The notes beneath the pieces are model-generated. The model searched no databases and was not told the DNA's origin. It saw nothing but the letters and a program-made list of their open reading frames with translations. Made by a program: the position numbers and the translations under genes. A stretch of DNA of 32,000 nucleotides from Candidatus Syntropharchaeum caldarium. GTDB taxonomy: Archaea; Halobacteriota; Syntropharchaeia; Syntropharchaeales; Syntropharchaeaceae. Of this stretch, positions 1-12,445 are shown piece by piece (the stretch's first letter is position 1; every line of letters begins with the position of its first letter). The stretch covers positions 14,168-46,167 of the forward strand of contig LYOS01000005.1 of assembly GCA_001766815.1 (NCBI GenBank), written 5' to 3'.

Positions 1-53
1 TACACTACTCATTTTATCTCCTCAACCTTTGCTCTGAGATACTCTTCTCTTTT

Positions 54-64
54 AACTTAAAAAC
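54..64 (-). promoter_or_regulatory. TATA-like box (aacttaaaaac) upstream of a gene start at the left window edge
   Basis: The same 11-mer occurs at 6881-6891 upstream of a DUF104 antitoxin. On the minus strand it is followed by gaggagataaaATG, with the ATG at 12-10 and the ORF running off the window. Confidence 0.3.
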
Positions 65-178
65 ATTCTCACCTTTTACCCTTGATCCAACCCACTTCCC
101 CAAAATCTACACCAACGGCGGAAGCGAGATCTACTACCGCTGAAGCATCTTCACCCAAACCCCACCAGCCACAACGTT

Positions 179-326
179 CCCTGTAGGCTTTTCCAAAAGC
201 TTAACTTAGGCAAAAATTTCATCTGCGATAGGGCTATTCAGCTACAGTACACCCGAAGCCCACCACAAGCGTTATAACATACCACTAGAAAAGATCAGAT
301 TTTACGACAGAGGAGATCGTGTTATT
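179..326. repeat. Cassette-punctuating repeat, copy R1 (truncated mosaic)
   Basis: Begins ccctgtaggcttttccaaaagc plus gatagggctattcagc and ends with the core tttacgacagaggagatcgtgtt (301-323). It lies 24 bp from the vapC stop. Confidence 0.8.
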
Positions 327-349
327 GGGCACTTTTATAAGCCCCAATT

Positions 350-724
350 CTACTCAATAAACTCAACACCTTCAAGACCTTTAAAATGCTTATCGCTTGT
401 GACCACAATCGCACCCTCACTTCTGGCAGTCGCATATACTATAGCATCCGCCATTCCAAACTCATATATAAGGCTGAAATCAGCAGCCGTTATCGCCAGA
501 TTATCGTCCAACGAGATTATTCGTGTTCGCATCATCTGGGCATAGGCCTCAAGAGCCGCTTCTTCGTTCACTTCGTTTTTTATCTTCCTATAAACCTCAT
601 AGACCACTATCGCGGGCGTGATTGCACTTTCTTCATCTACTTCTTTGATATAGTCTGCATACTTATCAGAAAGCGGGCCATCAGCAAAGTATTCTATCCA
701 ACCGTATGAATCAATCAGAATCAA
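350..724 (-). CDS. vapC: PIN-domain ribonuclease toxin VapC
   Basis: 124-aa ORF with the PIN acidic residues visible (MILIDS, VVYEV, GMADAI, VTSDKHF). Its start overlaps the upstream antitoxin ORF by 4 nt. Confidence 0.9.
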   Translation of the reverse strand: MILIDSYGWIEYFADGPLSDKYADYIKEVDEESAITPAIVVYEVYRKIKNEVNEEAALEAYAQMMRTRIISLDDNLAITAADFSLIYEFGMADAIVYATARSEGAIVVTSDKHFKGLEGVEFIE

Positions 725-930
725 AAGCGATCACTCTCATCTCTAATATCGCGAGTTTGAACTCCCTTTGCAAAACCCTTCATCTCTTTTATTGGTAACT
801 GGGGTATGAGCGTTATGATCCCACCTTTCTCAATCATAACCAACTTTTCTTTCGGTTTCAGCCCTATCTTCTCTCTAATGCTTCTTGGGATCGCGATCTG
901 AAACTTTGATGAGACTGTAACAACGGCCAT
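721..930 (-). CDS. vapB: AbrB/SpoVT-family antitoxin (VapB-type)
   Basis: 69 aa with an N-terminal AbrB/MazE-like pattern (VSSKFQIAIPRSIREKIGLKPKEKL). Translationally coupled to vapC. Confidence 0.85.
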   Translation of the reverse strand: MAVVTVSSKFQIAIPRSIREKIGLKPKEKLVMIEKGGIITLIPQLPIKEMKGFAKGVQTRDIRDESDRF

Positions 931-964
931 CGATATTACCTCTGCTTTACTTTTTGTTCTCGAG

Positions 965-974
965 GGATAAAAGG
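965..974 (-). promoter_or_regulatory. TATA-like box (minus strand ccttttatcc) for the vapBC cassette
   Basis: A/T box about 40 nt upstream of the ATG at 930. Six other cassette starts in the array show 36-40 nt (47 nt at the left-edge start). Confidence 0.4.
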
Positions 975-1051
975 TTTACGCCTCATACTCACCCTTCCTT
1001 CCGCGCAATCATAACAACTGCTAACCGCACCTATTGCATAACTCAAGACCC

Positions 1052-1250
1052 ACGGTAGGCTTTTCCAAACGTCCATTTATCGACAGAACTATTCAGCCAA
1101 AAGCTGAATCTCTCGACCGAAGATGCCTTTAATAAAGGCATTGCCAAAATGGTCTGCCTTCGGCGGACCTCGATCAACCGCAGGTCGATCATTTGAGGAT
1201 AAACTTTGTGAAAGTTCATATTGGGTGTATGAGGCGTGCTTTACGCTTCA
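1052..1250. repeat. Cassette-punctuating repeat, copy R2 (variant hairpin set)
   Basis: Shares ggtaggcttttccaaa, attcagcc..gctgaat, gaccgaagatgcctttaataaaggcattgc and gtgtatgaggcgtgctttacgc with R3/R4. The middle is replaced by other hairpins, e.g. ggtctgccttcggcggacc at 1151-1169. Confidence 0.8.
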
Positions 1251-1697
1251 CACCCACCCCTCCCTCCACACCATCACTCCCACGCACACGCTCCCAACCC
1301 CATTCCCCACAACCCATGCAACCCCAACCCCAACGACCCCAAACATCGTCATGAACAGGTACCCCAATCCAACCACCAACCCAAAAACCAACCCGCTCAG
1401 CACCACCAGCTCTTTAACATCCTTCTGAATCCTCTTGATCGCAAAAAAAATCCGACTGAGCGAAGCGAATGTCGGATGCAGGGGTAGAGGGGGCGGCAGC
1501 CCCTCTCGACAAACAGACTCGCGACAACCATCACCCGCAGCACCCCAGCCCCGCCAGCCGCATACTCGGCACCGAGCACCCCTGAGCACCAGAGCCGCTG
1601 CCGGAACGAGCAGCGAGAAGATGACAATAAGCGACTTCACAACGGTTCTTTTGAGTGCATCGCCGTGGCTACCCTCAACGAAGAGCGTGACGTTCAA
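1248..1697 (-). CDS. Doubtful hypothetical ORF in a GC-rich patch
   Basis: 149-aa ORF with two hydrophobic stretches. Its C-terminal third is the reverse complement of repeat box A1, and a hairpin plus T8 signal lies inside it. Probably not a genuine full-length CDS. Confidence 0.15.
   Translation of the reverse strand: MNVTLFVEGSHGDALKRTVVKSLIVIFSLLVPAAALVLRGARCRVCGWRGWGAAGDGCRESVCREGLPPPLPLHPTFASLSRIFFAIKRIQKDVKELVVLSGLVFGLVVGLGYLFMTMFGVVGVGVAWVVGNGVGSVCVGVMVWREGWV
1251..1306. repeat. C-rich box (G-rich on the minus strand), copy A1
   Basis: cacccacccctccctccacaccatcactcccacgcacacgctcccaaccccattcc. Near-identical copies lie at 2564-2617 and 6903-6956. Confidence 0.85.
1443..1477 (-). terminator. 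Hairpin followed by a T8 run (minus strand)
   Basis: Minus strand reads atccgac-(14 nt)-gtcggat followed by tttttttt. Oligo-T is the archaeal termination signal, and this lies downstream of the PIN-like gene 1706-2332. Confidence 0.4.
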
Positions 1698-1705
1698 TTG
1701 TAGTT

Positions 1706-2332
1706 TCAGTCTCCAATAGTGCGCATAACACGCCGAACCACATTACCCGAATCAAAATGGACTTCAACACACTGTTCTTTCAATTCGTCTCTTATCTCTT
1801 GATGATCAAAATCTTCTTTGTCGGATGTATAAAAAATTACCGTGTCATAATCATTCCCATTTTTCGTAAAACTCAATATAGATTCATAAATCTGTCTATC
1901 GTTGTCTTTATATGGCGGAAGATTCGCTACATCTCTTATAAATGCCCTGTATGCTATATCGGAATTATGCGGTATTGAAATGCACAATGATTTAATATCT
2001 TCTGTTGATTCCAGTACGTCAAGCTTTTCTTTTGAAGATTCCATATACAATTGCTTCAATTTTTCTTTCACATCGTATAATCTATCTTTATGATATTCAG
2101 ACCTCATTAAATCGTTTAAAAAGAAGATGATCTCTTTCAATTTATCTTCTCTCCGTTTAAATCTCTCATCTATCCTACCTTTGACTTCAAAAAACGAAAA
2201 TTCAGGGATTGCGACGTCAATCTTATTTTCACTTGCCAAATCGAGAAGATATCCACAATTTCTATCCTGTGCAAGGATGATTGAGTAAATAAAATTTGTT
2301 TCACCAATCACGAGGAGTTTTGGATTTTTCAT
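1706..2332 (-). CDS. Atypical PIN-like nuclease with a helical insertion
   Basis: 208 aa. N-terminal strand LLVIGETNFI, then PEFSFFEV, DNDRQIYESI and C-terminal FYTSDKEDF match the order of PIN acidic motifs. Residues about 55-105 are a K/E-rich helical insert. Confidence 0.6.
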   Translation of the reverse strand: MKNPKLLVIGETNFIYSIILAQDRNCGYLLDLASENKIDVAIPEFSFFEVKGRIDERFKRREDKLKEIIFFLNDLMRSEYHKDRLYDVKEKLKQLYMESSKEKLDVLESTEDIKSLCISIPHNSDIAYRAFIRDVANLPPYKDNDRQIYESILSFTKNGNDYDTVIFYTSDKEDFDHQEIRDELKEQCVEVHFDSGNVVRRVMRTIGD

Positions 2333-2450
2333 GGGTTCTAACTCCTTTTAACTCCTCTAATAATTCAGGTATGTACTTCAGAGCACTGCCCCAAATTTTC
2401 TGGACTTTTTGGCTCTTAAAGGCTATGTCTTTCTTTGTCAGTTCTTCCAT
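2301..2450 (-). CDS. Small 49-aa ORF, putative partner (antitoxin-like) of the PIN-like gene
   Basis: Hand translation gives MEELTKKDIAFKSQKVQKIWGSALKYIPELLEELKGVRTHEKSKTPRDW. It overlaps the start of the 208-aa ORF by 32 nt, and a TATA-like box lies 38 nt upstream. Below the ORF-track size cutoff. Confidence 0.4.
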   Translation of the reverse strand: MEELTKKDIAFKSQKVQKIWGSALKYIPELLEELKGVRTHEKSKTPRDW

Positions 2451-2483
2451 TCTTTATCACCTACCAACAATTCATCGTCATGT

Positions 2484-2493
2484 TTTAAATATT
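2484..2493 (-). promoter_or_regulatory. TATA-like box (minus strand atatttaaaa)
   Basis: Centred about 38 nt upstream of the ATG at 2450. Confidence 0.35.
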
Positions 2494-2563
2494 GTTCGCT
2501 TGCATCCACGACCCATCAATGGAACCACCTCATCAGTGTCCTTGCCACATTCATCCACCTAAA

Positions 2564-2856
2564 CCCACCCCTCCCTCCACACCATCGCGCCCACGCACAC
2601 GCACCCAACCCCGTTCCCTGTAGGCTTTTTCCAAAAGCCCACCCTGCAAAAACCCCACCTACCGATAAAGCTATTCAGCCTTCGGCTGAACCGTTCGACC
2701 GCAGATGCCTTTTAATAAAGGCATTGCGAAAGGAGCACCTCTTTGAGGTGCTCAAGTCCAACCGAAGGTTGGACATGGGTGTGTGAGGCGTGCTTTACGC
2801 CTCATAAGAGATCGGAGTTTACGACAGAGGAGATTGTGTTATTATCGGTCATGGTT
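2564..2856. repeat. Cassette-punctuating repeat, copy R3 (full length: C-rich box A2, seven hairpins and the core)
   Basis: 2617-2856 is near-identical to 4365-4600. The core tttacgacagaggagattgtgtt lies at 2818-2840. The repeat end supplies the last codons and the stop of the DUF3368 ORF. Confidence 0.9.
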
Positions 2857-3336
2857 TAGATCCGTTTCACCAACGATCTTTCTGTATTCTTTTTCACCAA
2901 GTCTGAAGCCGACCGCCATGAGATCGTCGATCGTTCTCTTCAGATCGAGATTATTATCTTCTGCCGCCAGCAACAGCAGACCGATCGTTCCGGTAATCTT
3001 TAATCCAAGAGATCTGGCGATTCGTCTTCCGTCACCATCATCAATAATTAAAAGTGCTGCGTTTTCCTCCTTTGCAAGTACTATCGCCTCTGCTTCACCC
3101 CTGTCCAGCATCAAGCAGAGAGAGTCTACCGCAAGTTTATTCTCGACTTCTTTCACTTCTATCCATCCCGCAGATCTCACCTCGTCTGCGCCATATAGAT
3201 TCCCTCCTTGTGTTACCACTTCATCATAGACCGCTTGTGGAATACAAAGATCATCAAAGTAGGTCTTCAATAATTCAAACCTTCCAATTCTCGAAAGTGC
3301 AATGAGTGGTGTAGAGTTGCATACAACAGTCATCAT
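2842..3336 (-). CDS. DUF3368-family PIN-like toxin
   Basis: 164 aa. VVCNSTPLIALSRIGRFELL and LDRGEAEAIVLA are characteristic of the DUF3368/COG2405 PIN-like family. Overlaps the upstream UPF0175 ORF by 4 nt. Confidence 0.8.
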   Translation of the reverse strand: MMTVVCNSTPLIALSRIGRFELLKTYFDDLCIPQAVYDEVVTQGGNLYGADEVRSAGWIEVKEVENKLAVDSLCLMLDRGEAEAIVLAKEENAALLIIDDGDGRRIARSLGLKITGTIGLLLLAAEDNNLDLKRTIDDLMAVGFRLGEKEYRKIVGETDLNHDR

Positions 3337-3617
3337 CTGTCCAGTACTTCTTTCAGTGTTTTGAGGTCGTTTTCTGCATCTTTTGCTGTATAATTTATCG
3401 TAACGCCCTTTTCATTCAGTAGCATCAACATCTCCCATTTATTTCGTACGCCAGCGACTTCCGCAGCTTTTCCGAGGGATAGTTTACCTTCCCTGTAGAG
3501 TTCCACAGCTAATGCTCGCCTGATAAAGATATCAACCTCCGCCTCCCTGATCTTTGCCGCCGCCAAAAAAGAATCTGGTAGATTAACTTTTGCCTCGATT
3601 GTTCCCATCTGCCTCAC
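3333..3617 (-). CDS. UPF0175-family antitoxin
   Basis: 94 aa. AVELYREGKLSLGKAAEVAG is typical of UPF0175/COG2886, the known partner of DUF3368. The track start is a GTG at 3617; the ATG at 3608 is more likely. Confidence 0.8.
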   Translation of the reverse strand: MRQMGTIEAKVNLPDSFLAAAKIREAEVDIFIRRALAVELYREGKLSLGKAAEVAGVRNKWEMLMLLNEKGVTINYTAKDAENDLKTLKEVLDR

Positions 3618-3640
3618 CGTCGTTTAATATCTCACTCATA

Positions 3641-3650
3641 CATTATATAT
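3641..3650 (-). promoter_or_regulatory. TATA-like box (minus strand atatataatg)
   Basis: About 38 nt upstream of the ATG at 3608. It lies inside the nonsense tail of the FrhB-like fragment. Confidence 0.4.
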
Positions 3651-4253
3651 CCTTATGTGGCAAGTTCTATGATGGTTGCGGTGCGATATAACCCTATTAT
3701 CAACCCCTTCCTTCAACTTCTCGTTCACCTGCTGCGCCTTCCTGAGCCCGTGTATGTGACAGGGCAGCCCCACGACCGCAAACTTCTCCCCTTCTTTTGA
3801 ATTTAGAATCTCTTTTAGTGCTACATTCGCGGGCACAGGGCAGTACTTCGAGCCTCTCGCCTCGATGACCTCTTCTCTTGTTCGTGCAATGAACGGCTCT
3901 GGCTCTAAGGGGTTATCTTTTTTCATTCTTGTAACCAAAGCGCCATCTATTATTCCTTCTTCTAAAGCGAAGATCAAAAGTTGAGTAACAAGACCACCCG
4001 ATGAAGAATTATATCGGATATCGTAATCTGTAGAATATCCAATGTAACAATTAAGATAATTTCCGATCAGAATATCATCTGGCTCTTTCCCGAATATCTC
4101 AAGATTCAACTCTTTGAAATCGACCTCGTGACCAGGGCAGACTTTATAGCAGATTCCACAGTTGTTGCATTTTTCTTCGTTCAATTCAGGGACATAAACC
4201 CCTTTCTTCTCATCGATCACCATCTCTATCGCTTCATTCGGACACAGAGCGAG

Positions 4254-4307
4254 GCACGTCCCGCAGCCTGTGCAAAGGTTATCTTTTACGACCTGGGAGA
4301 TTGTGTG
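4254..4307. repeat. Segment of the FrhB-like 5' coding region duplicated at 5289-5342; contains the 23-nt core
   Basis: Manual alignment gives 48 of 54 identical positions with 5289-5342. 4285-4307 (tttacgacctgggagattgtgtg) matches the terminal core of R1, R3, R4 and R5. Confidence 0.85.
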
Positions 4308-4364
4308 ATCATTCATTCCATTATCCAATGAGGAAACGCTAACATTTAAATTCATCTCTCCTTC

Positions 4365-4600
4365 TACAGTAGGCTTTTCCAAAAGCCCACACGGCAAAAA
4401 GCCCACCTTCGGTAGGGCTATCCAGCCTTCGGCTGAACCGTTCGACCGAAGATGCCTTTAATAAAGGCATTGCGAAAGGAGCACCTCTTTGAGGTGCTCA
4501 AGTCCAACCGAAGGTTGGACATGGGTGTATGAGGCGTGCTTTACGCCTCATAAGAGATCGAAGTTTACGACAGAGGAGATTGTTTTGTCGGTCATAGTTT
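4365..4600. repeat. Cassette-punctuating repeat, copy R4 (reference copy; seven hairpins and the core)
   Basis: Hairpins: 4372-4387, 4401-4418, 4423-4435, 4452-4470, 4479-4499, 4502-4520, 4528-4552. Core at 4564-4586. Confidence 0.9.
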
Positions 4601-4629
4601 CCAGACGATCATCCAAAATTTTGGAAAAA

Positions 4630-5004
4630 TTATTTGACATATTCTACATTTTCCATGTATTCAAACTCTCGATCACCTGTAAGAAATTTTATTCGGTGTC
4701 TTTTCGCATATACATATCCAAGACAATCTATCAGCGAAAGATTCTTACTTTCTTTGTTGGTGAGCAATCTCAACTCGGATGCTTTAATGTAATCCCGATC
4801 TTCGGCATACGCTATTTCGATCTCGTCTCTCACCAACCTCAACATATCCATTGTATCGCTTCCGAAATCCCTGAATAAAGCATACGTAAGTTCAAAAATA
4901 TTGAATTCTGTGGTGATAAGTGATCTATCAGAATAATTTTTGTAACCTGAACTACCTTTCAAAATCTCAACCAAAGCGTATGTGTCCGCAAAAAATTCAG
5001 CCAT
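4630..5004 (-). CDS. vapC: PIN-domain toxin VapC
   Basis: 124 aa with FFADTYALVE, TEFNIFEL, SLIDCLGY and FLTGDREF. Overlaps the antitoxin ORF by 8 nt. Confidence 0.85.
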   Translation of the reverse strand: MAEFFADTYALVEILKGSSGYKNYSDRSLITTEFNIFELTYALFRDFGSDTMDMLRLVRDEIEIAYAEDRDYIKASELRLLTNKESKNLSLIDCLGYVYAKRHRIKFLTGDREFEYMENVEYVK

Positions 5005-5182
5005 GTATGTTCCTCAGCTCTTCTTTCAATCTTTGAGAATCTACTTTCCAGCCCTTAAGAATGCCAAACATTGCTTTTTTCTTCACCTCTAACTCTACTT
5101 CCTCACCCTCTTTCAAATCCAGTTTCTCAAGCGGCTTCAGGACATTGTTCTCATACACAGCTTTTATGATCATAGGCGACAC
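4997..5182 (-). CDS. DUF104 (AF2212-like) antitoxin
   Basis: MIIKAVYENNVLKPLEKLDLKEGEEVELEV is the family signature. The track start is a GTG at 5182; the ATG at 5173 is more likely. Confidence 0.8.
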   Translation of the reverse strand: MSPMIIKAVYENNVLKPLEKLDLKEGEEVELEVKKKAMFGILKGWKVDSQRLKEELRNIHG

Positions 5183-5206
5183 CTGTGAATAATTTGTGTT
5201 TGTAGG

Positions 5207-5214
5207 TTAAAAAG
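5207..5214 (-). promoter_or_regulatory. TATA-like box (minus strand ctttttaa)
   Basis: 37 nt upstream of the ATG at 5173. The same motif occurs at the same distance at 6071-6078. Confidence 0.4.
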
Positions 5215-5254
5215 ATGGCGATGGTAGGAAAGGCTCGCTAAAAAGAGTGATAGT

Positions 5255-5342
5255 CCTGTAGGATGTGGGCGTAAGATAAGCCTACAACGCACGTCCCGCA
5301 GCCTGTGCAGAGGTTGGAGTTTACGACCTGGGAGATTGTGTT
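5255..5342. repeat. Cassette-punctuating repeat, copy R5 (short chimeric copy)
   Basis: cctgtaggatgtgggcgtaagataagcctac followed by the 54-nt FrhB-like segment. It ends in the core tttacgacctgggagattgtgtt (5320-5342), 25 bp from the PIN stop. Confidence 0.8.
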
Positions 5343-5367
5343 GCTGAGGGGCAGGTTTATCATTTCC

Positions 5368-5850
5368 TCACATCTTTTCAAGAATATCTATAATTCCTTC
5401 AAGATCGATCTTTCTGATTAAAACAGAGCTAACACCAGCCTCTTCTGCATGAGAATGCATTTTTCCATCGTCCGTAAACAGTATCGCATCCTCTATCCTT
5501 GCCAATGCTATAAAATATGAATCGAATCCGGAACAGCCGGTCTCCGTGGCAATTCTCCATGCGATGTTGAAGAGAATAGCTTCATCAACAAGCTCATAAG
5601 AATTGAAAACTCCTTCAGAGATTCTCCTCGCAAGATCCTTATCACTGAGTCTTTTTGTTACTGCTGCTGTTTCAACAACGCAAACTTTTGGGATATAAGT
5701 TTCTACCTTCTTTTCTTCCAGTTTCTTAATGATTAATCTGCACTTTTCATGGGTTTCCAACTCTCTTTTATGTATTTTACTTGAGATGGATTTTGGTGGC
5801 TTAAAAATGCTCTTTATGATGACAGATGTGTCTAAAACAGATCTATTCAT
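5368..5850 (-). CDS. vapC: PIN-domain toxin (160 aa)
   Basis: SVLDTSVIIK, CVVETAAV, SGFDSYFIALA and LFTDDGKM. Overlaps the antitoxin ORF by 8 nt. Confidence 0.85.
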   Translation of the reverse strand: MNRSVLDTSVIIKSIFKPPKSISSKIHKRELETHEKCRLIIKKLEEKKVETYIPKVCVVETAAVTKRLSDKDLARRISEGVFNSYELVDEAILFNIAWRIATETGCSGFDSYFIALARIEDAILFTDDGKMHSHAEEAGVSSVLIRKIDLEGIIDILEKM

Positions 5851-6046
5851 AATAATTCCTAATCCGCATATCCTCTAAAACTTTGTCTATATCCACCTTT
5901 GCTTCCAGTTCTCCCAGTTCATCAAGCAATTTGCTAAAACTTCCTTTGATTGTTATTCGCACTTCTGTTTTTTCTGGCAAATCCAGTTTCTCAAGCGGCT
6001 TCAGGACATTATCCTCATACACAGCTTTTATGATCATACGAGACAC
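5843..6046 (-). CDS. DUF104 (AF2212-like) antitoxin
   Basis: MIIKAVYEDNVLKPLEKLDLPEKTEVRITI. Likely ATG at 6037 (track GTG at 6046). Confidence 0.8.
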   Translation of the reverse strand: MSRMIIKAVYEDNVLKPLEKLDLPEKTEVRITIKGSFSKLLDELGELEAKVDIDKVLEDMRIRNYYE

Positions 6047-6070
6047 CTGTGGATAATTTGTGATTGAAGG

Positions 6071-6078
6071 TTAAAAAG
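6071..6078 (-). promoter_or_regulatory. TATA-like box (minus strand ctttttaa)
   Basis: 37 nt upstream of the ATG at 6037; paralogous to 5207-5214. Confidence 0.4.
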
Positions 6079-6116
6079 ATGGCGATGGTGGGGAAGGTTC
6101 GCTCAAAGATCGATAG

Positions 6117-6175
6117 CCCTGTAGGATGTGGGCTTTTGGAAAGCCTGTGGTGTGTGAGGCGTACTTTACGCCTCA
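6117..6175. repeat. Cassette-punctuating repeat, copy R6 (short)
   Basis: ccctgtaggatgtgggcttttggaaagcct (first hairpin in inverted orientation, gg loop) plus tgaggcgtactttacgcctca. The last hairpin contains the stop codon of the PIN pseudogene. Confidence 0.75.
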
Positions 6176-6669
6176 TAATGGCTTCCACACCTTAATCCAG
6201 TCAACCCGCTCAAAATCGCTGTCGTTTGTGGCGATGTTTGTTAGTCCATACTTTTCCATCGTTGCAAGATGCATGGCATCGTTTGGCAGCAAATTGTATT
6301 TCTCCATCAGCATCGTTACTTCCACACATTCGAATCCAATGAAAGAGATATTCAGGTCGAGTTCATCAAACAACATCGTCACTGCATCAAAATCTACCAG
6401 TTCAATCAAGCTGGGATCTCTCTTTATCTCTCTTGCAACTCTATAGGGTGCGATTCCTCTTAATCTGAGTAATTCAGATTTTAGAAAATTCAGTAAAACC
6501 TCTGAGATTATGATGTCGTTAACGTATCCTCTCTATTCTTTTCTCTCAACTTGCCTAAGAAAGTCTCTACATGATTCTCCAAAAATCTCATGTCCTGAAA
6601 AAGGTGATATGTAAATATATTAGAATCTATGAATATCTCTAAGCCTCTTGATAAAGCGCTGCGCGTCAT
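6173..6669 (-). pseudogene. vapC: PIN-domain toxin interrupted by a frameshift
   Basis: The ATG at 6669 overlaps the antitoxin stop (TGATG) and gives MTRSALSRGLEIFIDSNIFTYHLFQD...REKNREDTLTTS*. The remaining PIN motifs (IIISEV, LLPNDAMHLA, ATNDSDF) continue in another frame from about 6530 to the stop at 6173. Confidence 0.75.
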
Positions 6670-6860
6670 CACTCTCCGTTTTCTGTGGACTCTATTATTT
6701 CATCGATCTGTTCATTGCTCAACTTTGACACAGCATAAGTATTATCTACAGCACTGATGGGGATTCCGATCTCGATCACATCCCCCTCTTTCAAGCCCAA
6801 TTTCTTAAGTAGCTTCAAAACCTCGTCCTTGTATACTGCTTTTATTCGCATTTGCGTCAC
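6669..6860 (-). CDS. DUF104 (AF2212-like) antitoxin
   Basis: MRIKAVYKDEVLKLLKKLGLKEGDVIEIGI. Likely ATG at 6851 (track GTG at 6860). Confidence 0.75.
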   Translation of the reverse strand: MTQMRIKAVYKDEVLKLLKKLGLKEGDVIEIGIPISAVDNTYAVSKLSNEQIDEIIESTENGE

Positions 6861-6880
6861 TGATAGTTAGTTAATCTTTG

Positions 6881-6891
6881 AACTTAAAAAC
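6881..6891 (-). promoter_or_regulatory. TATA-like box (aacttaaaaac)
   Basis: About 36 nt upstream of the ATG at 6851. The same 11-mer occurs at 54-64. Confidence 0.35.
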
Positions 6892-6902
6892 TTGCCGTTC
6901 AT

Positions 6903-7099
6903 ACCCACCTCTCCTTCCACACTGTCACCCCAACGCACACGCACCCAACCCCATTCTCTGCAGGCTTTTCCAAAAGCCCATCCTGCAAAAAGCCCATCTG
7001 TGATAGGGCTATTCAGCCTTCGGCTGGATATTTTCGATCTTTGATCGGAATTGTCCTATCGAAGATGGGCTTTTGGGTGCAGGCTTTGAAAAGCCTGCG
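6903..7099. repeat. Cassette-punctuating repeat, copy R7 (C-rich box A3 plus an inverted-repeat-bounded variant)
   Basis: Box at 6903-6956. 6959-6998 (gcaggcttttccaaaagcccatcctgcaaaaagcccatc) is an imperfect inverted repeat of 7064-7098, and the two arms flank the cagccttcggctg hairpin. Confidence 0.8.
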
Positions 7100-7331
7100 T
7101 TCGATTAAATAGAAGACGCAATCAAACTGAACGAGCGATGCGAACCGCATATCCGCCTGCTATGCAGTCTGAACGATAGCGAAAGTGCAACGTGGTAACA
7201 GGGATATCAACATGTTTTAGGGCGAAGCTTCTCTCAAATCCCCTTTTTGATATTCCAGCGGAGTAAAGTGTCGAAGGTGGGCACGCATCCCAATCTTCAC
7301 GTCTTTTTCCTCAACTGCCACTTCCAATAAT

Positions 7332-7859
7332 TCATAGAACGTATGTATAAGCCCTCATAAGCTGGCTATAGTGAAATGGACTGGATGGGTTTTTACTGTC
7401 GTAATATTGCAAATTCTTAGCATAACCATCATGTATTTTTCCAATCGGATCTCCAGGCTTCACACCAAGCTTAAAATAGGCTCTTATGAGATTTTTATCC
7501 CTCCAAATCCAGGCTATCTCAAAGAATTTCATTACATTGCCATAGGCGCGCTCAATCTTTACAAGCTTTTTAGGATCTTTTGAATAACGCTTTTTACGCT
7601 CCGTATATGCATCCTCAACCTCGTCCTCAGTTGCCCCTTCTTTCAATCCCAGTATATTAAGAGAAGTAGTAAACATCTTAATTTCGTTTGTTCTTGCTTG
7701 AAAATTACAACGAGGGCACTTATGAAAGGCAAAAGGACCGTTTGGATCTTGATTTCCAATCGGGCTTGGTGACATGATGGCAGCACACGCTGGACATCGC
7801 ATATCACTAAACCTTCCTGGCATATTGAGACTTGTCAGATCATTACCTCCTGGTATCAT
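7332..7859 (-). CDS. Zinc-ribbon protein with two degenerate J-domain-like repeats
   Basis: 175 aa. CPAC...CPRC, then ILGLKEGATEDEVEDAYTERKKRYSKDPKKLVKIERAY and YFKLGVKPGDPIGKIHDGYAKNLQYYDSKNP...LMRAY. The layout is J-helix II/III-like but there is no HPD. Confidence 0.55.
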   Translation of the reverse strand: MIPGGNDLTSLNMPGRFSDMRCPACAAIMSPSPIGNQDPNGPFAFHKCPRCNFQARTNEIKMFTTSLNILGLKEGATEDEVEDAYTERKKRYSKDPKKLVKIERAYGNVMKFFEIAWIWRDKNLIRAYFKLGVKPGDPIGKIHDGYAKNLQYYDSKNPSSPFHYSQLMRAYTYVL

Positions 7860-8188: not shown

Positions 8189-8238
8189 TTATATCATCCC
8201 CGTTTCAATTTGATTACGTCGTCTATTTTTCTGGACTT

Positions 8239-9198
8239 TTACCCCCTCACCCTCCCCACAACCTCTCCCCCAAGTATCCCACATGCTTTTCTGGCATCAG
8301 CCTCATCAACCACCGCAAGAAATCCCATGCCCATATTGAATGTGCGATACATCTCATCATCCTCGATTCTGCCTATCTCCTGCAGAAATTTGAAGATCGG
8401 TTGTGGTGGTAATGGATCTGTGATCTCAAATTCAAGATCCGTGAGTCTTTTGAGCTTCAGAAGCCCTGATCCTGTGATATGCGCAAGTCCATGAACATCA
8501 CATGCCTTGATCAGATCCACAACCTCGATATAGATCTTTGTTGGGATCAAAAGTTCCTCTCCTATTGTCTTCGATGGATCGGGTGGGAATGGATCGTTGT
8601 ATGAATATCCTGCATCTTCAATGACCTTCCTTGCAAGTGTTAAGCCATTTGAGTGGATGCCTGATGATGGAACACCGATTATAGCATCTCCCTTCTCGAT
8701 TCGATCACCTGTTATGATTTTTTCTTTTCCCTGGATCACGCCGAGCGCACTTCCTGCAAGATCCATGCCATTTATGATCTCAGGAAGCGTTGCGGTCTCG
8801 CCTCCAACAATCGAGATATTGGAGAGCCTCGCGCCCTCATTCAGACCCTTACCAATCTCTGCTGCGATATTTTCATCCCCACGTTCCATAGCCAGGTAAT
8901 CGACAAAAGCAAGTGGTTCAGCCCCAACTGCAAGAAGATCGTTCACATTCATCGCTATGCAGTCAATACCGATTGTATCCCACTTTCCAAGCTCTTCTGC
9001 AACGAGGATCTTTGATCCAACGCCGTCTGTTGTGAAGGCAAGTATCAAACTTCCAAGATCGATCAATCCTGCATAATGTCCGATATCACCGATCGGCCCA
9101 CCAAATCCACGACGCCTGTATGTAATATGTGATGATAAAGACCTTATAATCTCGTTTTCCTTAAATATATCAACGCCAGCATCCCTGTATGTAGCCAT
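8239..9198 (-). CDS. purM: Phosphoribosylformylglycinamidine cyclo-ligase (AIR synthetase)
   Basis: 319 aa. [30 protein letters not shown] and [10 protein letters not shown] are PurM signatures. Confidence 0.95.
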
Positions 9199-9263
9199 GC
9201 AAGAAGAATGATGTTGCTCTTAGTTCATAAATCTACCCTGATTCCTTGCGTGCGTGACAAACC

Positions 9264-9293: not shown

Positions 9294-10451
9294 ATGAAAA
9301 ATGAGTGCGACATCCTGGTTATAGGGGCGGGATTTGCAGGCCTGAGTGCAGCGATCTCTGCTTCAAGGGCTGGAGCAAAAACACTTATAGTTGCTCCTTC
9401 ACTTGCAAAGACGATACCAGGTGGTGAAGTGGGGCTTGATCTCCTGGGAATAGGACCAAAGACCGCTGCTGCGTTCAAGGAGGTTACAGGATCTTTTCCA
9501 CCGTATTACATCGAGACCTATGGTTTTAAATATATCTCACCCGAGGGAAAGACATTTACAGACAGATCGGAAGAGGTGAGAGGCTGGACGTTGATGACAA
9601 CAGAAGCTACAGAGATCCTCTTCAAAAAAGCGATCGTTGAGGGCAGCGATTACATAAATGCATCTGTTATCGATTTCATCATAAATAGCGGCAGCGTTGA
9701 TGGTGTGATACTCGATGATGGTAGATCGATCCAGTCAAAAGTCGTGATATGTGCATGCGGTTATAATCCACAGCTCATCCAGAAACTCGGGGTGGCACCG
9801 CCCAAAGACTCACTCTTTGCTCTGCAGACCCTCCTTGACATGAAGAAAGAAGGAGATGAACATCTGCTCTTTACATTCTTCTGCGGAAAGCGATGGTCCA
9901 ACAGTCTCGGCGGATTTTTGATGCCCGTGAGCAAAAAGAGGGCAGTTCTGGCGATTGGTGTAAAGTCACGTGGAGATGCACACAGCTATCTTCTGAGGGT
10001 AATCAGAGAACACCCCGTAATATCCAGGCAGGTTGAATGGAATCCAGGCAGGATGCATGGAGGCGTAATCTCACTCGGTCTTGCAGAGAGAAGCTATGGT
10101 AACGGTTTTCTCCTTGCAGGAGATGCGGCAGGGCACTTTAGGCCGATAGGTGGTGTTGGGTCAGGAAACGCTCTTCTATTTGGTCGTATGGCTGGAACGA
10201 TCGCGGCAGAAGCCGTGCACGAGGATGACGTCTCCAGTAATCGACTAAAAGCCTTTGAAGAGGCGTGGATGGCAACTCTAGAGGGTCAGTCACTCATACA
10301 GATGTTTCCATATTCAGAGATCATGAGAAATGCGGATGACAGGGTGCTTGAGGACGCCTTTTCGGGCTTTGAAGGTAGAAAGATCTCAAAGACATTCTAT
10401 CTGGAACTTATTGCGGCAATTTCTGGAGAATCAAAAATAAAAGAAGGGTGA
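9294..10451 (+). CDS. FAD-dependent oxidoreductase, geranylgeranyl reductase family
   Basis: 385 aa. N-terminal DILVIGAGFAGLSAA Rossmann motif and C-terminal LAGDAAGH motif. Confidence 0.8.
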   Translation: MKNECDILVIGAGFAGLSAAISASRAGAKTLIVAPSLAKTIPGGEVGLDLLGIGPKTAAAFKEVTGSFPPYYIETYGFKYISPEGKTFTDRSEEVRGWTLMTTEATEILFKKAIVEGSDYINASVIDFIINSGSVDGVILDDGRSIQSKVVICACGYNPQLIQKLGVAPPKDSLFALQTLLDMKKEGDEHLLFTFFCGKRWSNSLGGFLMPVSKKRAVLAIGVKSRGDAHSYLLRVIREHPVISRQVEWNPGRMHGGVISLGLAERSYGNGFLLAGDAAGHFRPIGGVGSGNALLFGRMAGTIAAEAVHEDDVSSNRLKAFEEAWMATLEGQSLIQMFPYSEIMRNADDRVLEDAFSGFEGRKISKTFYLELIAAISGESKIKEG

Positions 10452-10456
10452 CCGAA

Positions 10457-12445
10457 TCATATTCGGCCAAGTTTCCTGAGCATCTCGGCGGTCTCAGGGA
10501 AGAGATCAAGGTTCTTGTTCGGTAGATACATCGACTCAGGATAGAGCTTCATGTAGTCGGGATGTATCGCAGCTTCGATGAACTTACACTCTTCTGAGAA
10601 CCTGTCCGCCATCTTCCGCTCTGCTCTTGAGACAAGTGCCTTTCTGACACCTGTTCCTGCAGCGTTCCCGATACCTTCGATCTTATCGAGTGGGAACTCA
10701 GGGAACATACCCATTGTACGGGCAGACTCTGGATCGATGAAGTTTCCGAATGCACCAGCGATGACAAGCTTATCGATCGTCTCCACGGTCTGACCCATCT
10801 CACGCATCAGTAGATATGCGCCACAGAACATAGCTCCCTTTGCAAGCGTCAGTTCTCTTATATCTGCCTGTTCGATCACGATATCCTTCCCGATCGCGGT
10901 CTCTTCTGCTGGAACGATCACATACTCCAGGCCTCGTGGACCTTCCCGCATCCTCGGATCGACTCCCAGTAACTCTCTGTTCATCTGCCCGGATGGGAGT
11001 ATTATACCAGCCTTCAAAAATTCTGCTGGAACATCACAGAGCCCGGATCCACATATACCGATCGCTTTTGTCTCCACTTTTCTGAACTTTGAACAGGATC
11101 GGATAGCGCCTGATGTGATCCCTTCGATGAGTTTGTATTCGACTTCTCTTGTCTCGGGATCGATTCTGATCTTCTCAACCGCACCATTTGACGCCCGCAT
11201 ACCGCACCTGATCATCATACCCTCAAATGCAGGACCTGAAGCACATGATACACACATGCATCCATCCTTGTTTCCAAGCGTCATCTCGGTGTTTGTACCG
11301 ATATCAAGCTCGAGGATCATCTCATCGTTGTTTAAGAAGTCAACCGCAAGCTGGGCTGCAATCTGGTCTGCACCCACAAAGCCCCGTATGATCGGGAGTG
11401 AATAGGTAGATCCATTGGGGTGCATCTTCAAACCGAGTTTTGCAGAGGGCGCTCTCAATGATTTTCTCACTGCTGCGGGGTATGGTGCAAAGGTCACAAA
11501 CTTGGGCCATACGCCGAGGAGTAGATGATGCATCGCTGTATTTCCGACAACCACTGCTTCATATACTTCATCATGTCGAATACCGGTAAGCTCGCAGATC
11601 TCATCGAGCATGTCATTCAATCCACTTATGACGGCCGACTGCACTGTCTTGAGATTTTCCATCCCCTTCTTTGCATATGTAATCCTTGATAAGACATCCT
11701 CACCATAGGGAATCTGGGGGTTCATCCTCGACGAAACGCCCACGACTTTCCCTGTGTTGAGATCCATCAGGAAACCTGCAAGTTTTGTCGATCCAACATC
11801 AACCGCAAATCCATAGCATCGATCAGTGGTATCACCTGGCTCAACCGCCAGCACCTTGTTATCGTCGATGGTTACAACGGTAATATCAAAGTCCTTCTTC
11901 TTACCACCCACCTCTCGCATCACGATTGGTAGATATGTCAGAACTTCATAGGGTATCTCAAGATCGATTCCATATTGCTTCTTGAACTCTTCAAGGAGTC
12001 TTGTTTGATCTGCACGATCATCATGCAGCGTTGCTTTCGGTAGTACGATATGATACTTGCGGATCGCTGGGTCGATGACAAAGTCCTCTGGCAGCTCAAG
12101 TCCCTCTGTCTGAAGCCGCTGTGCCCCGAGCCTGCTGGATTCAGGTACCTTGAGCACAAGCCTACCTTCTTTGGGCATCTCAATACAGCAGAGTAGTCTG
12201 ACTCCCTCTCGTTTTTCATCATCAGAGAGGAGTGCCGCTTCGGAGGGCTGCATATCATCAAGTAGCTCAAGTCCATCTTCCACAACGACCTTACACTTTC
12301 CACACTCACGTGCTCCACCGCAGATCGTAGCGATGTCCACACCGAGCTTCATCGCAACCTCAAAGAGGTTTGTACCAGGCTCAAATGTGCCTCGCAACCC
12401 CGATGGGAAGAAGACAACGTTGTAATCAGTTACGTGTCCTGCCAC
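10457..12445 (-). CDS. ATP-dependent reductive activator of corrinoid proteins (RACo/COG3894, ASKHA fold) with an N-terminal [2Fe-2S] ferredoxin domain
   Basis: 662 aa. CGGARECGKCKV...LLCC plant-type ferredoxin pattern, then the ASKHA phosphate motifs FAVDVGSTK and LDIGTNTE. Confidence 0.8.
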   Translation of the reverse strand: MAGHVTDYNVVFFPSGLRGTFEPGTNLFEVAMKLGVDIATICGGARECGKCKVVVEDGLELLDDMQPSEAALLSDDEKREGVRLLCCIEMPKEGRLVLKVPESSRLGAQRLQTEGLELPEDFVIDPAIRKYHIVLPKATLHDDRADQTRLLEEFKKQYGIDLEIPYEVLTYLPIVMREVGGKKKDFDITVVTIDDNKVLAVEPGDTTDRCYGFAVDVGSTKLAGFLMDLNTGKVVGVSSRMNPQIPYGEDVLSRITYAKKGMENLKTVQSAVISGLNDMLDEICELTGIRHDEVYEAVVVGNTAMHHLLLGVWPKFVTFAPYPAAVRKSLRAPSAKLGLKMHPNGSTYSLPIIRGFVGADQIAAQLAVDFLNNDEMILELDIGTNTEMTLGNKDGCMCVSCASGPAFEGMMIRCGMRASNGAVEKIRIDPETREVEYKLIEGITSGAIRSCSKFRKVETKAIGICGSGLCDVPAEFLKAGIILPSGQMNRELLGVDPRMREGPRGLEYVIVPAEETAIGKDIVIEQADIRELTLAKGAMFCGAYLLMREMGQTVETIDKLVIAGAFGNFIDPESARTMGMFPEFPLDKIEGIGNAAGTGVRKALVSRAERKMADRFSEECKFIEAAIHPDYMKLYPESMYLPNKNLDLFPETAEMLRKLGRI

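Follow-up and report, generated by a model that had tools for sequence, protein, structure and literature searches.

Regions in which several type II toxin–antitoxin (TA) pairs of different classes are closely spaced have been described as TA 'islands' (Makarova, Wolf & Koonin 2009, PMC2701414). Tandem duplication cannot explain these islands, and a preferential incorporation or transfer of TA 'cassettes' was proposed; the same study reported tandem duplications of DUF104/PIN pairs in Archaeoglobus and UPF0175 proteins as partners of PIN toxins (PMC2701414). TA pairs also make up 10.5 per cent of the annotated cassettes of archaeal integrons (Ghaly et al. 2022, PMC9668308). The islands have been recognised since 2009, and how unrelated TA pairs become adjacent is still unexplained. 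Here, we analyse a 32 kb stretch of DNA (the window) from the butane-oxidising archaeon Candidatus Syntrophoarchaeum caldarius. Positions 1–7100 hold an array of TA cassettes separated by copies of one hairpin-rich repeat, and the remaining ~25 kb were used as a comparison. The array is a TA island, a kind of region already known, and its junctions can be read: direct copies bracket the cassettes, scars of other genes are present and related populations show other orders. Judged from these orders, the cassettes are being actively reshuffled, and the probable agent is recombination between repeat copies, not an integron.

Cassettes and their shared repeat

Pfam identifies six type II TA cassettes (C2 to C7) on the minus strand, arranged head to tail as described in the first-pass annotation of this DNA, and a seventh (C1, DUF2281-like/ParE) begins at the left edge (table 1). 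Several adjacent pairs of recognised families and of more than one class make this region a type II TA island. The C1 toxin, of the ParE type, lies beyond the window edge; in the homologues P0001 and P0002, a ParE_toxin gene follows. A TATA-like box, read from the sequence, is found 25–45 nt upstream of every antitoxin start, in agreement with the earlier proposal that each cassette carries its own. The families had been called unrelated, and this needs qualification. The toxins of C2 to C6 are indeed mutually unrelated by BLASTP, but all the toxins within the window belong to the PIN superfamily, and the three DUF104 cassettes (C5, C6 and C7) are partly paralogous because they have their promoter and first ~30 antitoxin codons in common (170 nt, 88% identity). 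The C7 toxin, frameshifted here and intact (165 aa) in the related contig L015, is one of a family whose paralogues occur in related contigs.

Seven copies (R1 to R7) of one mosaic repeat separate the cassettes, and none occurs in the other 25 kb. Searches with single modules of the repeat gave four to five matches each, against 0.00–0.12 expected by chance. An nhmmer profile built from five full copies detected 159–243, 1047–1251, 2588–2807, 4357–4553, 6149–6178, 6928–7067 and 6993–7101, with none in 7.1–32 kb; R5 (5250–5283) is detectable only as an inverted H1/H2 module. Perfect hairpins with a stem of at least 7 number 16 in the first 7.1 kb and one in the remaining 25 kb. The shared repeat is thus real and far beyond chance; it is linked to the cassette boundaries and has one polarity throughout.

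R3 is the most complete copy. Read along the plus strand, it begins with a C-rich tract (the 'G-tail' of the gene strand) and has the hairpins H1 (GGCTTTTCCAAAAGCC), H2 (GCCC...GGGC flanked by A5), H3 (CAGCCTTCGGCTG), H5 (ATGCCTTTAATAAAGGCAT), H6 (GAGCACCTCTTTGAGGTGCTC) and H7 (GTCCAACCGAAGGTTGGAC), the linker ATGGGTG and H8 (TATGAGGCGTGCTTTACGCCTCATA). The other copies are subsets of R3; H1/H2 are inverted in R5 and R6, and R7 has both orientations, its inverted arms (27 nt, 85% complementary) lying inside a palindrome of ~143 nt at 68.5%. H8, which lies on the toxin side of the repeat and is absent from R1 and R5, is a 25-bp palindrome with arms of 9–10 bp and an asymmetric spacer of 5–7 bp (TATGAGGCGT-GCTTT-ACGCCTCATA). 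It is direct in all copies and the orientation of its spacer is constant.

In the gene direction the element, ~220 nt long, runs from H8' through variable hairpins to H2' and H1'; in R1, R3, R4 and R7, H2' consists of a GC hairpin with T5 behind it. Folded, the element forms six to eight independent local hairpins in a row, not a single long imperfect hairpin, and the fold is far more stable than those of shuffled sequences (z = -6.2 as RNA, -6.6 as DNA).

The repeat was said to lie at or within about 45 bp of the toxin stop codon, which does not hold for C3, where a 149-aa gene fragment (ORF149) intervenes and the first module is ~400 nt away. The two stop codons attributed to the repeat differ in position: that at 6173 lies in the H8 palindrome, and that at 2842 in the part of the repeat that is a vestige of another gene, described below. 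The stop codon of ORF149 is also within H8, and H8' supplies stop codons in two of three frames. The H8 palindrome opens with ATGAGGCG, giving rise to short spurious open reading frames (ORFs) on both strands (MRRALRLI... and MRRKARLI...). These recur in the ORF lists of the window (2781–2806, 4528–4552, 6152–6178 and 1228–1253) and at many other loci, and could mislead gene callers.

Beyond what the first-pass annotation described, the repeat contains coding vestiges of neighbouring genes. One comes from an FrhB-like gene, truncated in the window, with 81% amino acid identity to an intact gene of Ethanoperedens E37 and Pfam matches to FrhB_FdhB_N and Fer4. In addition to the pseudogene itself, its 5' end is found in native orientation at 289–331, 2806–2857, 4552–4600 and 5289–5345. 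The vestige in R3 encodes a 16-codon mini-ORF, MTDNNTISSVVNSDLL followed by a stop, equal to the 5' end of the FrhB-like gene; for comparison, this end reads MSDDTIASVVKDGLC in E37, forms a 31-codon fragment at 5289–5381 and reads MTDNNTISQVVNSNLCTGCGTC... in L015. The second vestige is the G-tail (1252–1307, 2563–2618 and 6898–6956), which corresponds to the last 19 codons of ORF149, as its in-frame C-terminus. ORF149 has no Pfam match of its own; it is 28% identical (E = 0.019) to a 187-aa ORF of contig L032 with sub-threshold MatE/MurJ matches, which weakly suggests that it may be a flippase fragment. In E37 both genes are intact, the flippase gene ending 4 nt ahead of the FrhB-like one, and next comes a pyruvyl-transferase gene; the array therefore sits in what appears to be the wreck of a polysaccharide operon. 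By the same comparison, pieces of the flippase/FrhB junction are copied along with the hairpins.

Direct repeats of 34–238 nt with 79–93% identity bracket every cassette. Those of R4 and R3 (238 nt, 91.6%) enclose the FrhB-pseudogene and C4, those of R6 and R5 (170 nt, 88%) enclose C6, and the G-tail copies at 1252–1307 and 2563–2618 (56 nt, 93%) enclose C3 and ORF149.

Cassette order in related contigs and relatives of the element

Contigs from related metagenomes and metagenome-assembled genomes are 85–99% identical to parts of the array; like the window, all are short-read assemblies spanning repeats. As the first-pass annotation had suggested might be seen on comparing related assemblies, cassettes are found with different neighbours (table 1). 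After C4 comes C3 in the window, C7 in L015 and L020, and a PIN166 cassette in L032. After C1 comes C7 in L021, a PIN161 cassette in L022 and L024, and C5 in L023. Contigs from different samples agree pairwise (L015 with L020, L022 with L024), and L001, L024 and L031 match parts of the window. The repeat or H8' also follows the last gene of other TA operons, with ParE (L014, L021), HicA (L017) and MNT/HEPN (L019). The variant contigs could represent paralogous arrays of one genome and not different strains; read either way, cassettes are copied into new contexts.

Four classes of breakpoint are observed. Some lie at the base of H8, including a swap after PIN174 between contigs otherwise 97–99% identical. 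A second class falls within FrhB codons ~5, ~15 and ~31, and a third close to codon 22 in the DUF104 antitoxins; the last lies ~75 nt inside the toxin 3' end, a stretch that is near-identical among PIN proteins otherwise 37–42% identical. The presence of breakpoints inside coding sequence points to homologous or illegitimate recombination, and not to one core site.

A scan for H8 of 185,579 species-representative genomes returned three archaeal genomes and one bacterial chance match. Ethanoperedens E37 has one exact H8 copy, S. butanivorans has two and Syntrophoarchaeum sp. 12019_3 has three. In E37 the whole element is present, 84–87% identical to the ~220-nt element of the window, between a HicB-like gene and an antitoxin/RelE pair and 2.3 kb from the intact FrhB-like gene; positions 102–242 of R1 are 87% identical to this locus (L004). 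For PurM, E37 is not among the matches listed, and the best matches listed outside the Syntrophoarchaeum lineage have ~65% amino acid identity. Because the similarity of the element and of the FrhB-like gene to E37 far exceeds that of PurM, the region has probably moved horizontally. Such a similarity between Syntrophoarchaeum and Ethanoperedens, well above that of housekeeping genes, points to an exchange of cassettes between distant, co-occurring syntrophic archaea.

The other Syntrophoarchaeum genomes have kept only the H7-linker-H8 unit, adjoining housekeeping genes (e.g. aconitase) and abutting the truncated 5' end of an IS5-like transposase gene. The link of the repeat to cassette boundaries seen in the window does not extend to these genomes, where H7-H8 stands beside ordinary genes. 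In S. butanivorans and sp. 12019_3, H8 abuts, in reverse orientation, the first ~36 codons of the transposase (MKSLIDYSLNEEYEKVKRLGDRLAEVDSLIDWGAFR) in at least four copies, so that the repeated unit there includes the insertion sequence (IS) fragment. H8 hardly changes from copy to copy, 7 of its 9 pairs being constant, and the 7-nt linker is nearly invariant too, whereas the H7 stem is kept by compensatory changes in 5 of 8 pairs and its position may hold other, unrelated hairpins. An H8 variant of S. butanivorans has a shorter spacer (TATGAGGCG-CATC-CGCCTCATA). One-sided stem changes that keep pairing all give G-T on the plus strand of the window, antisense to the TA genes; they concern three columns and ~3–5 independent events, too few to choose between selection on a plus-strand RNA or single-stranded DNA and a mutation bias.

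Some candidate relatives were rejected. Bacterial matches to the H8 pattern (L008, L010, L011, L013) were taken as chance, with unrelated contexts and ~17 expected for 18 specified bases in 596 Gb. A viral origin was dismissed after four IMG/VR scans (H8, H1, H6 and the H7-H8 linker), each of which gave none or one chance match. We do not claim a replacement of cassettes between unique flanks (window versus L032), the right flank in L032 being 59 nt of the repeat itself.

Table 1. Features of the array in the window and in related sequences. Gene orders of related contigs are given in the gene direction.
Sequence	Feature	Coordinates	Strand	Description
Window	C1 antitoxin	1–12	minus	first codons of 85-aa DUF2281-like antitoxin; start at base 12, runs off left edge
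Window	C1 TATA-like box	48–64	minus	GTTTTTAAGTTAAAAGA on minus strand; same motif at 6875–6891
Window	C2	350–930	minus	MazE/AbrB antitoxin 721–930; PIN toxin 350–724 (Pfam)
Window	ORF149	1248–1697	minus	probable 3' fragment of MOP-type polysaccharide flippase gene; stop in H8
Window	C3	1706–2450	minus	49-aa ORF 2301–2450, no family; PIN_12 toxin 1706–2332 (Pfam)
Window	C4	2842–3617	minus	UPF0175 antitoxin 3333–3617; DUF3368/PIN toxin 2842–3336 (Pfam)
Window	Truncated FrhB-like gene	3636–4406	minus	residues 1–205 of 433-aa protein; likely start ATG at 4316
Window	C5	4630–5182	minus	AF2212 (DUF104) antitoxin 4997–5182; PIN toxin 4630–5004 (Pfam)
Window	C6	5368–6046	minus	AF2212/DUF104 antitoxin 5843–6046; PIN toxin 5368–5850 (Pfam)
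Window	C7	6173–6860	minus	AF2212/DUF104 antitoxin 6669–6860; frameshifted PIN 6508–6672 and 6173–6409
Window	R1	102–331	plus	module X 102–160, H1 183–198, H2 210–242, FrhB 5' vestige 289–331; without H4–H8
Window	R2	1047–1307	plus	H1-like 1055–1075, H3-like 1091–1109, H5 1123–1141, private hairpin hpX 1201–1219, H8 1228–1253, C-rich 'G-tail' 1252–1307
Window	R3 (fullest copy)	2563–2857	plus	G-tail 2563–2618, H1 2623–2639, H2, H3 2674–2690, H5 2705–2724, H6 2733–2753, H7 2756–2774, H8 2781–2806, FrhB 5' vestige 2806–2857
Window	R4	4361–4600	plus	H1 4372–4387, H2 with T5 terminator-like site 4402–4416, H3, H5 4452–4470, H6 4479–4499, H7 4502–4520, H8 4528–4552, FrhB vestige 4552–4600
Window	R5	5183–5381	plus	promoter module with TATA 5207–5222, inverted H1/H2 5250–5283, 31-codon FrhB 5' fragment 5289–5345 (ORF to 5381)
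Window	R6	6047–6178	plus	promoter module 6071–6086, inverted H1/H2 6113–6146, H8 6152–6178 (gives stop of upstream PIN)
Window	R7 (right-hand array end)	6898–7101	plus	G-tail 6898–6956, H1 6963–6978, H2 with T5 6993–7007, H3 7010–7030, inverted H2 7055–7069, inverted H1-like 7079–7098; overall ~140-bp palindrome
L015, L020	Gene order			FrhB-pseudogene, C4, 31-codon FrhB fragment with DUF104 promoter, intact C7, new C8 (PIN174)
L032	Gene order			C4, PIN166 cassette
L022, L024	Gene order			C2, R1, C1, PIN161 cassette, PIN166 cassette
L021	Gene order			C1, C7
L023	Gene order			C1, C5, full repeat, C7
L012	Gene order			C8, toxin split by IS5-like element with 16-bp inverted repeats
L025	Cassette-3' repeat	2272–2329, 9584–9641, 10534–10591, 11197–11254, 20125–20164		CACTTTCTTTCAYCGAAAGAACCTGAACTAAGAAAGGA, often followed by TTTTCCGCG...CGGAAAA hairpin
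L002	H8 with IS5-like fragment	~440–560		
L005	H8 with IS5-like fragment	~4070–4185		
L003	H8 with IS5-like fragment	~6310–6430		
L006	H8 with IS5-like fragment	~2120–2240		

The IS5-like element of L012 (463–1654), which interrupts the PIN174 toxin gene, encodes a 330-aa transposase and has perfect 16-bp inverted repeats (GAGACCTTTGCAAAAC) with a probable ATTC target duplication. An origin of the repeat as an IS5-derived miniature inverted-repeat transposable element (MITE) was considered and rejected: the inverted repeat of this IS is absent from the window and the other loci, and is near no repeat copy. In L017, a small hydrophobic ORF (MWRDICLMPGIAIITLVLGYLLMQSMGLIGYEA followed by a stop), or a 3' fragment of it, ends twice in the H8 loop (~330–470 and ~1400–1470). 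Right after the TA cassettes of the same contig (2468–3689) are a RAMP (Csm3/Cmr4)-like ORF and a small-subunit-like ORF, recognised by eye from sequence motifs, which suggests type III CRISPR-Cas genes.

The window proteins correspond to OFV67259–OFV67282 (e.g. SCAL_001528) on a contig of 100,686 bp. From 7.3 to 32 kb the genes are ordinary chromosomal ones, including purM, a corrinoid methyltransferase set, V-ATPase subunit I, truA and pdxS. The window contains no tRNA or tmRNA gene as a possible integration target. The right-border gene (7332–7859) encodes 175 aa in the window and in the Logan assembly, versus 114 aa in the NCBI record (J-domain protein SCAL_001539); its Pfam match, of the CPP1-like/J-domain type, is sub-threshold only. 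The purM gene (8235–9243) is 97.5% identical in nucleotide sequence to positions 9956–10964 of L029 (Syntrophoarchaeum sp. 12019_3). The homology ends at the gene ends and the flanks are unrelated on both sides, as if either purM had been exchanged alone or the neighbourhoods had been rearranged; with purM alone in common, L029 was discarded as an empty-site or synteny comparison.

How the array may have been built

To a model in which the island was built and is reshuffled by homology-dependent insertion and unequal crossover between direct repeat copies, we give about an even chance of being correct. The island would have grown within what was left of a polysaccharide-biosynthesis operon (a flippase gene followed by the FrhB-like gene). 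Each cassette is an autonomous transcription unit (TATA box, antitoxin, toxin), and the repeat combines the ~220-nt hairpin element with the first 15–31 FrhB codons and with ~19 codons from the end of the probable flippase gene. A segment consisting of a TA pair and a stretch homologous to the repeat would integrate by single-crossover (Campbell-type) homologous recombination, which would duplicate the homologous stretch on both sides and fix one orientation of the insert. Other routes of spread could be unequal crossover, gene conversion and template switching at palindromes. Once direct copies exist, recombination between any pair of them could excise, delete, duplicate or re-order cassettes. 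Ordinary cargo would be unstable in such insertions; a TA pair presumably penalises its own loss, so the array would end up containing solely TA pairs, addiction retaining this cargo. In addition, the hairpins probably act as terminators or RNA 3' ends that insulate neighbouring operons, as the H2' hairpin with T5 in the gene direction suggests. The recombination pathway itself we infer from the sequence pattern.

Several features would be explained together by this homology-driven model: all inserts face one way, scars of genes are present, the repeat varies in extent, breakpoints are scattered and other arrays have other gene fragments as their repeat. The island also collects mobile DNA and decay products: the IS5-like insertion in L012, the frameshifted PIN gene, and the FrhB and flippase fragments.

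The same logic is seen in two independent arrays, with duplicated fragments of other genes. The first, in contig L025 of the ANME-1 archaeon 'Methanospirareceae' (JBNGDK010000038.1), is a row of TA units in one direction, set among sugar-nucleotide gene fragments. Here, a UPF0175/DUF3368 cassette with its own promoter and hairpin repeat (1060–2498) lies inside a UDP-glucose dehydrogenase gene; 168 bp of the gene are directly duplicated on both sides (91% identity) and the gene resumes after the insert. A different, T-rich hairpin repeat of 40–53 nt follows five unrelated TA units, and a 109-nt YdjM fragment (7484–7592 and 11728–11836) brackets five cassettes. L025 contains no recombinase. In the second, in L032, a UDP-GlcNAc 2-epimerase-like fragment of ~190 nt occurs three times between TA pairs (854–1043, 1912–2100 and 2863–3038; 69–78% identity). 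These are UPF0175/DUF3368 and DUF2283 pairs, on the strand opposite to the C4-type array.

Several observations weigh against homology-dependent assembly. H8 and the linker are near-invariant as sequence while H7 changes by compensation, which implies that H8 is recognised by its sequence, and plain homologous recombination would need no such recognition. At the outer base of H8 the homology breaks off, and it does so against no fewer than six different flanks. Sequences to either side of H8 are found in new combinations, including downstream of PIN174 in the near-identical L015 versus L020 and L012, as expected from a site-specific crossover site. The ANME-1 repeat belongs to the cassette 3' end and not to the target. 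The true left flank of the array in S. caldarius lies outside the sequence read; and the window and variant contigs were assembled across repeats of 100–240 bp, so that some joins could be chimeric.

Part of this evidence would be accounted for by a site-specific cassette system, integron-like or Xer/pdif-like, with H8 as the crossover site and a recombinase encoded elsewhere, for example a tyrosine recombinase of the host. We regard it as possible although unlikely. Besides the invariance of H8 and its linker beside covarying hairpins, it is exactly at the base of H8 that homology between lineages is lost, left modules (H7, hpX, H1) and right flanks (FrhB vestige, PIN 3' end, G-tail) occur in five combinations, and one swap at H8 separates contigs 97–99% identical elsewhere. 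In TA operons of at least five families, the last gene is followed first by H8', the orientation of the H8 spacer is constant, and in pdif systems, too, TA cargo is common and no recombinase lies nearby. But many breakpoints are off H8, in FrhB codons, antitoxin 5' ends and toxin 3' ends, and R1 and R5 have no H8. Moreover, H8 lacks the 11-6-11 structure of dif, all its copies are in direct orientation, its variant in S. butanivorans has a shorter spacer, related genomes have just one to three exact copies, and no recombinase was identified in the sequences read. The first-pass annotation saw no recombinase, and neither the ORFs of the 32-kb window nor its right flank include one. Its suggestion to look leftwards for a recombinase or attI-like junction could be followed for up to ~2.5 kb past the window edge, in L001 (from the same sample, prolonging the window by 323 bp) and the strain variants L021–L024; only further cassettes were found. 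In a broader form, which we would advance only tentatively, the array would belong to an undescribed platform of Syntrophoarchaeum, Ethanoperedens/GoM-Arc1 and ANME-1, in which TA modules with a palindromic 3' element (H8, or CACTTTCTTTCAYCGAAAGAA... in ANME-1) equivalent to attC or pdif would be excised, inserted and exchanged between archaeal orders by a recombinase encoded elsewhere.

Alternatively, the hairpin element may be a non-autonomous mobile or self-propagating palindrome, similar to repetitive extragenic palindromes (REP) and their mosaics (BIME) or to MITEs, which decorates a TA array of separate origin. This seems to us distinctly unlikely. The mosaic of 16–25-nt palindromes, some in both orientations (GTCCTGCC-GAA/TTC-GGCAGGAC in S. 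butanivorans; H1/H2 inverted in R5–R7), and the ~140-bp palindrome of R7 with its MITE-like arms argue for it. So do the H7-H8 units beside housekeeping genes and truncated IS5-like transposase 5' ends, the truncated coding sequences of several different genes that H8 abuts, and the 84–87% identity of the element in E37 versus ~65% for PurM among the matches listed, which implies horizontal spread. However, neither target-site duplications nor a transposase were found, copy number is low, there is no association with viral contigs, and copies within a lineage have common flanks (FrhB vestige, IS fragment, small membrane-ORF fragment) and therefore spread as larger segments and not by precise transposition.

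It is improbable that the repeat is kept mainly for a role in RNA, as a terminator, insulator, 3'-end stabiliser or processing site of TA transcripts. Such a role would fit H2' with its T5, the stability of the fold, the compensatory changes in H7 and the T-rich hairpin that the unrelated ANME-1 repeat also places at cassette 3' ends. But the stems pair perfectly and would fold equally well from either strand, the few changes confined to one side of a stem give G-T on the plus strand, which is antisense to the TA genes, and in S. butanivorans the orientation to the upstream gene is reversed. It would also leave the gene vestiges and the reshuffling unexplained, and is compatible with assembly by homology rather than an alternative to it.

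That the cassette orders are mis-joins across repeats is highly improbable: an independent assembly of the same sample (SRR3669912) does break inside repeats (L001, L031 and L009, which ends at window position ~6251), and close homologues of the cassette toxin are found almost only on contigs shorter than 5 kb, but the repeat copies differ among themselves by 2–20%, so that most joins can be resolved, the contigs of different samples concur as described above, and unique junction sequences exist, e.g. the DUF3368 stop overlapping the start of the vestige.

Comparison with known systems

The first-pass annotation compared the array with integrons. An attC site is an imperfect palindrome of 55–141 bp with R'' (RYYYAAC), L'', L' and R' (GTTRRRY) that forms one hairpin. 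No R''/R' pair with L-box complementarity was found on either strand of 1–7400 by a crude script (not IntegronFinder), and Rfam gave nothing relevant in a gathering-threshold scan of the whole window or an E-value scan of 1–7400. Membership of the integrons is not supported: there is no attC architecture or Rfam match, the element is a chain of local hairpins and the cassettes are not promoterless units expressed from Pc but have their own TATA-like boxes. No IntI or attI is present in the sequence read, and gene fragments and scattered breakpoints are further differences. The functional analogy, that of moving cassettes with a common 3' element, is partly borne out. As in integrons and integron-less cassette clusters (CALINs), the cassettes are unidirectional with TA cargo and variable order, and the structured 3' element sometimes overlaps the stop codon; in CALINs the integrase may be absent (PMC9668308).

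The pdif modules of Acinetobacter plasmids are Xer-dependent small modules, often TA pairs, bounded by short palindromic sites and shuffled with no recombinase nearby, much as here. Their sites are dif-related, 28 bp long (11-6-11) and of alternating orientation, unlike H8 (9/10-5/7-9/10), which is always direct. The dif sites of bacteria and archaea have the 11-6-11 architecture (PMC2958812). With its arms of 9–10 bp and spacer of 5–7 nt, H8 does not conform to it. H8 also presumably bears no resemblance to the bacterial dif consensus.

REP and BIME are mosaic extragenic palindromes located just after stop codons, with more than 100 copies per genome and linked to REP-associated tyrosine transposases (RAYT) (Nunvar et al. 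2010, PMC2817692). The likeness lies in short palindromes arranged in mosaics, partly in alternating orientation, with proposed roles in termination or mRNA stability. The differences are the archaeal host, the lack of a RAYT in the window and the low copy number, concentrated in one island. To our knowledge, REP/RAYT systems have not been described in archaea, and a literature search on archaeal REP-like elements or TA cassettes with such repeats found nothing specific. Of the traits of MITEs, inverted arms are present in R7 and no target-site duplication was recognised.

Campbell-type integration leaves an insert bracketed by direct copies of a homologous fragment, in a single orientation, and is reversible. 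This matches the 168-bp duplication in L025 and the 34–238-nt repeats of the window, although circular intermediates are hypothetical here. We know of no case in which it serves as a natural route for building TA arrays.

The closest described regions are the TA islands. Compared with those of Makarova, Wolf & Koonin (2009, PMC2701414), the present island is strictly unidirectional, has one structured repeat with vestiges of the target gene and occurs in different orders in related populations. Homology-dependent insertion stabilised by TA addiction thereby becomes a testable model for such islands, and so does a site-specific model centred on H8.

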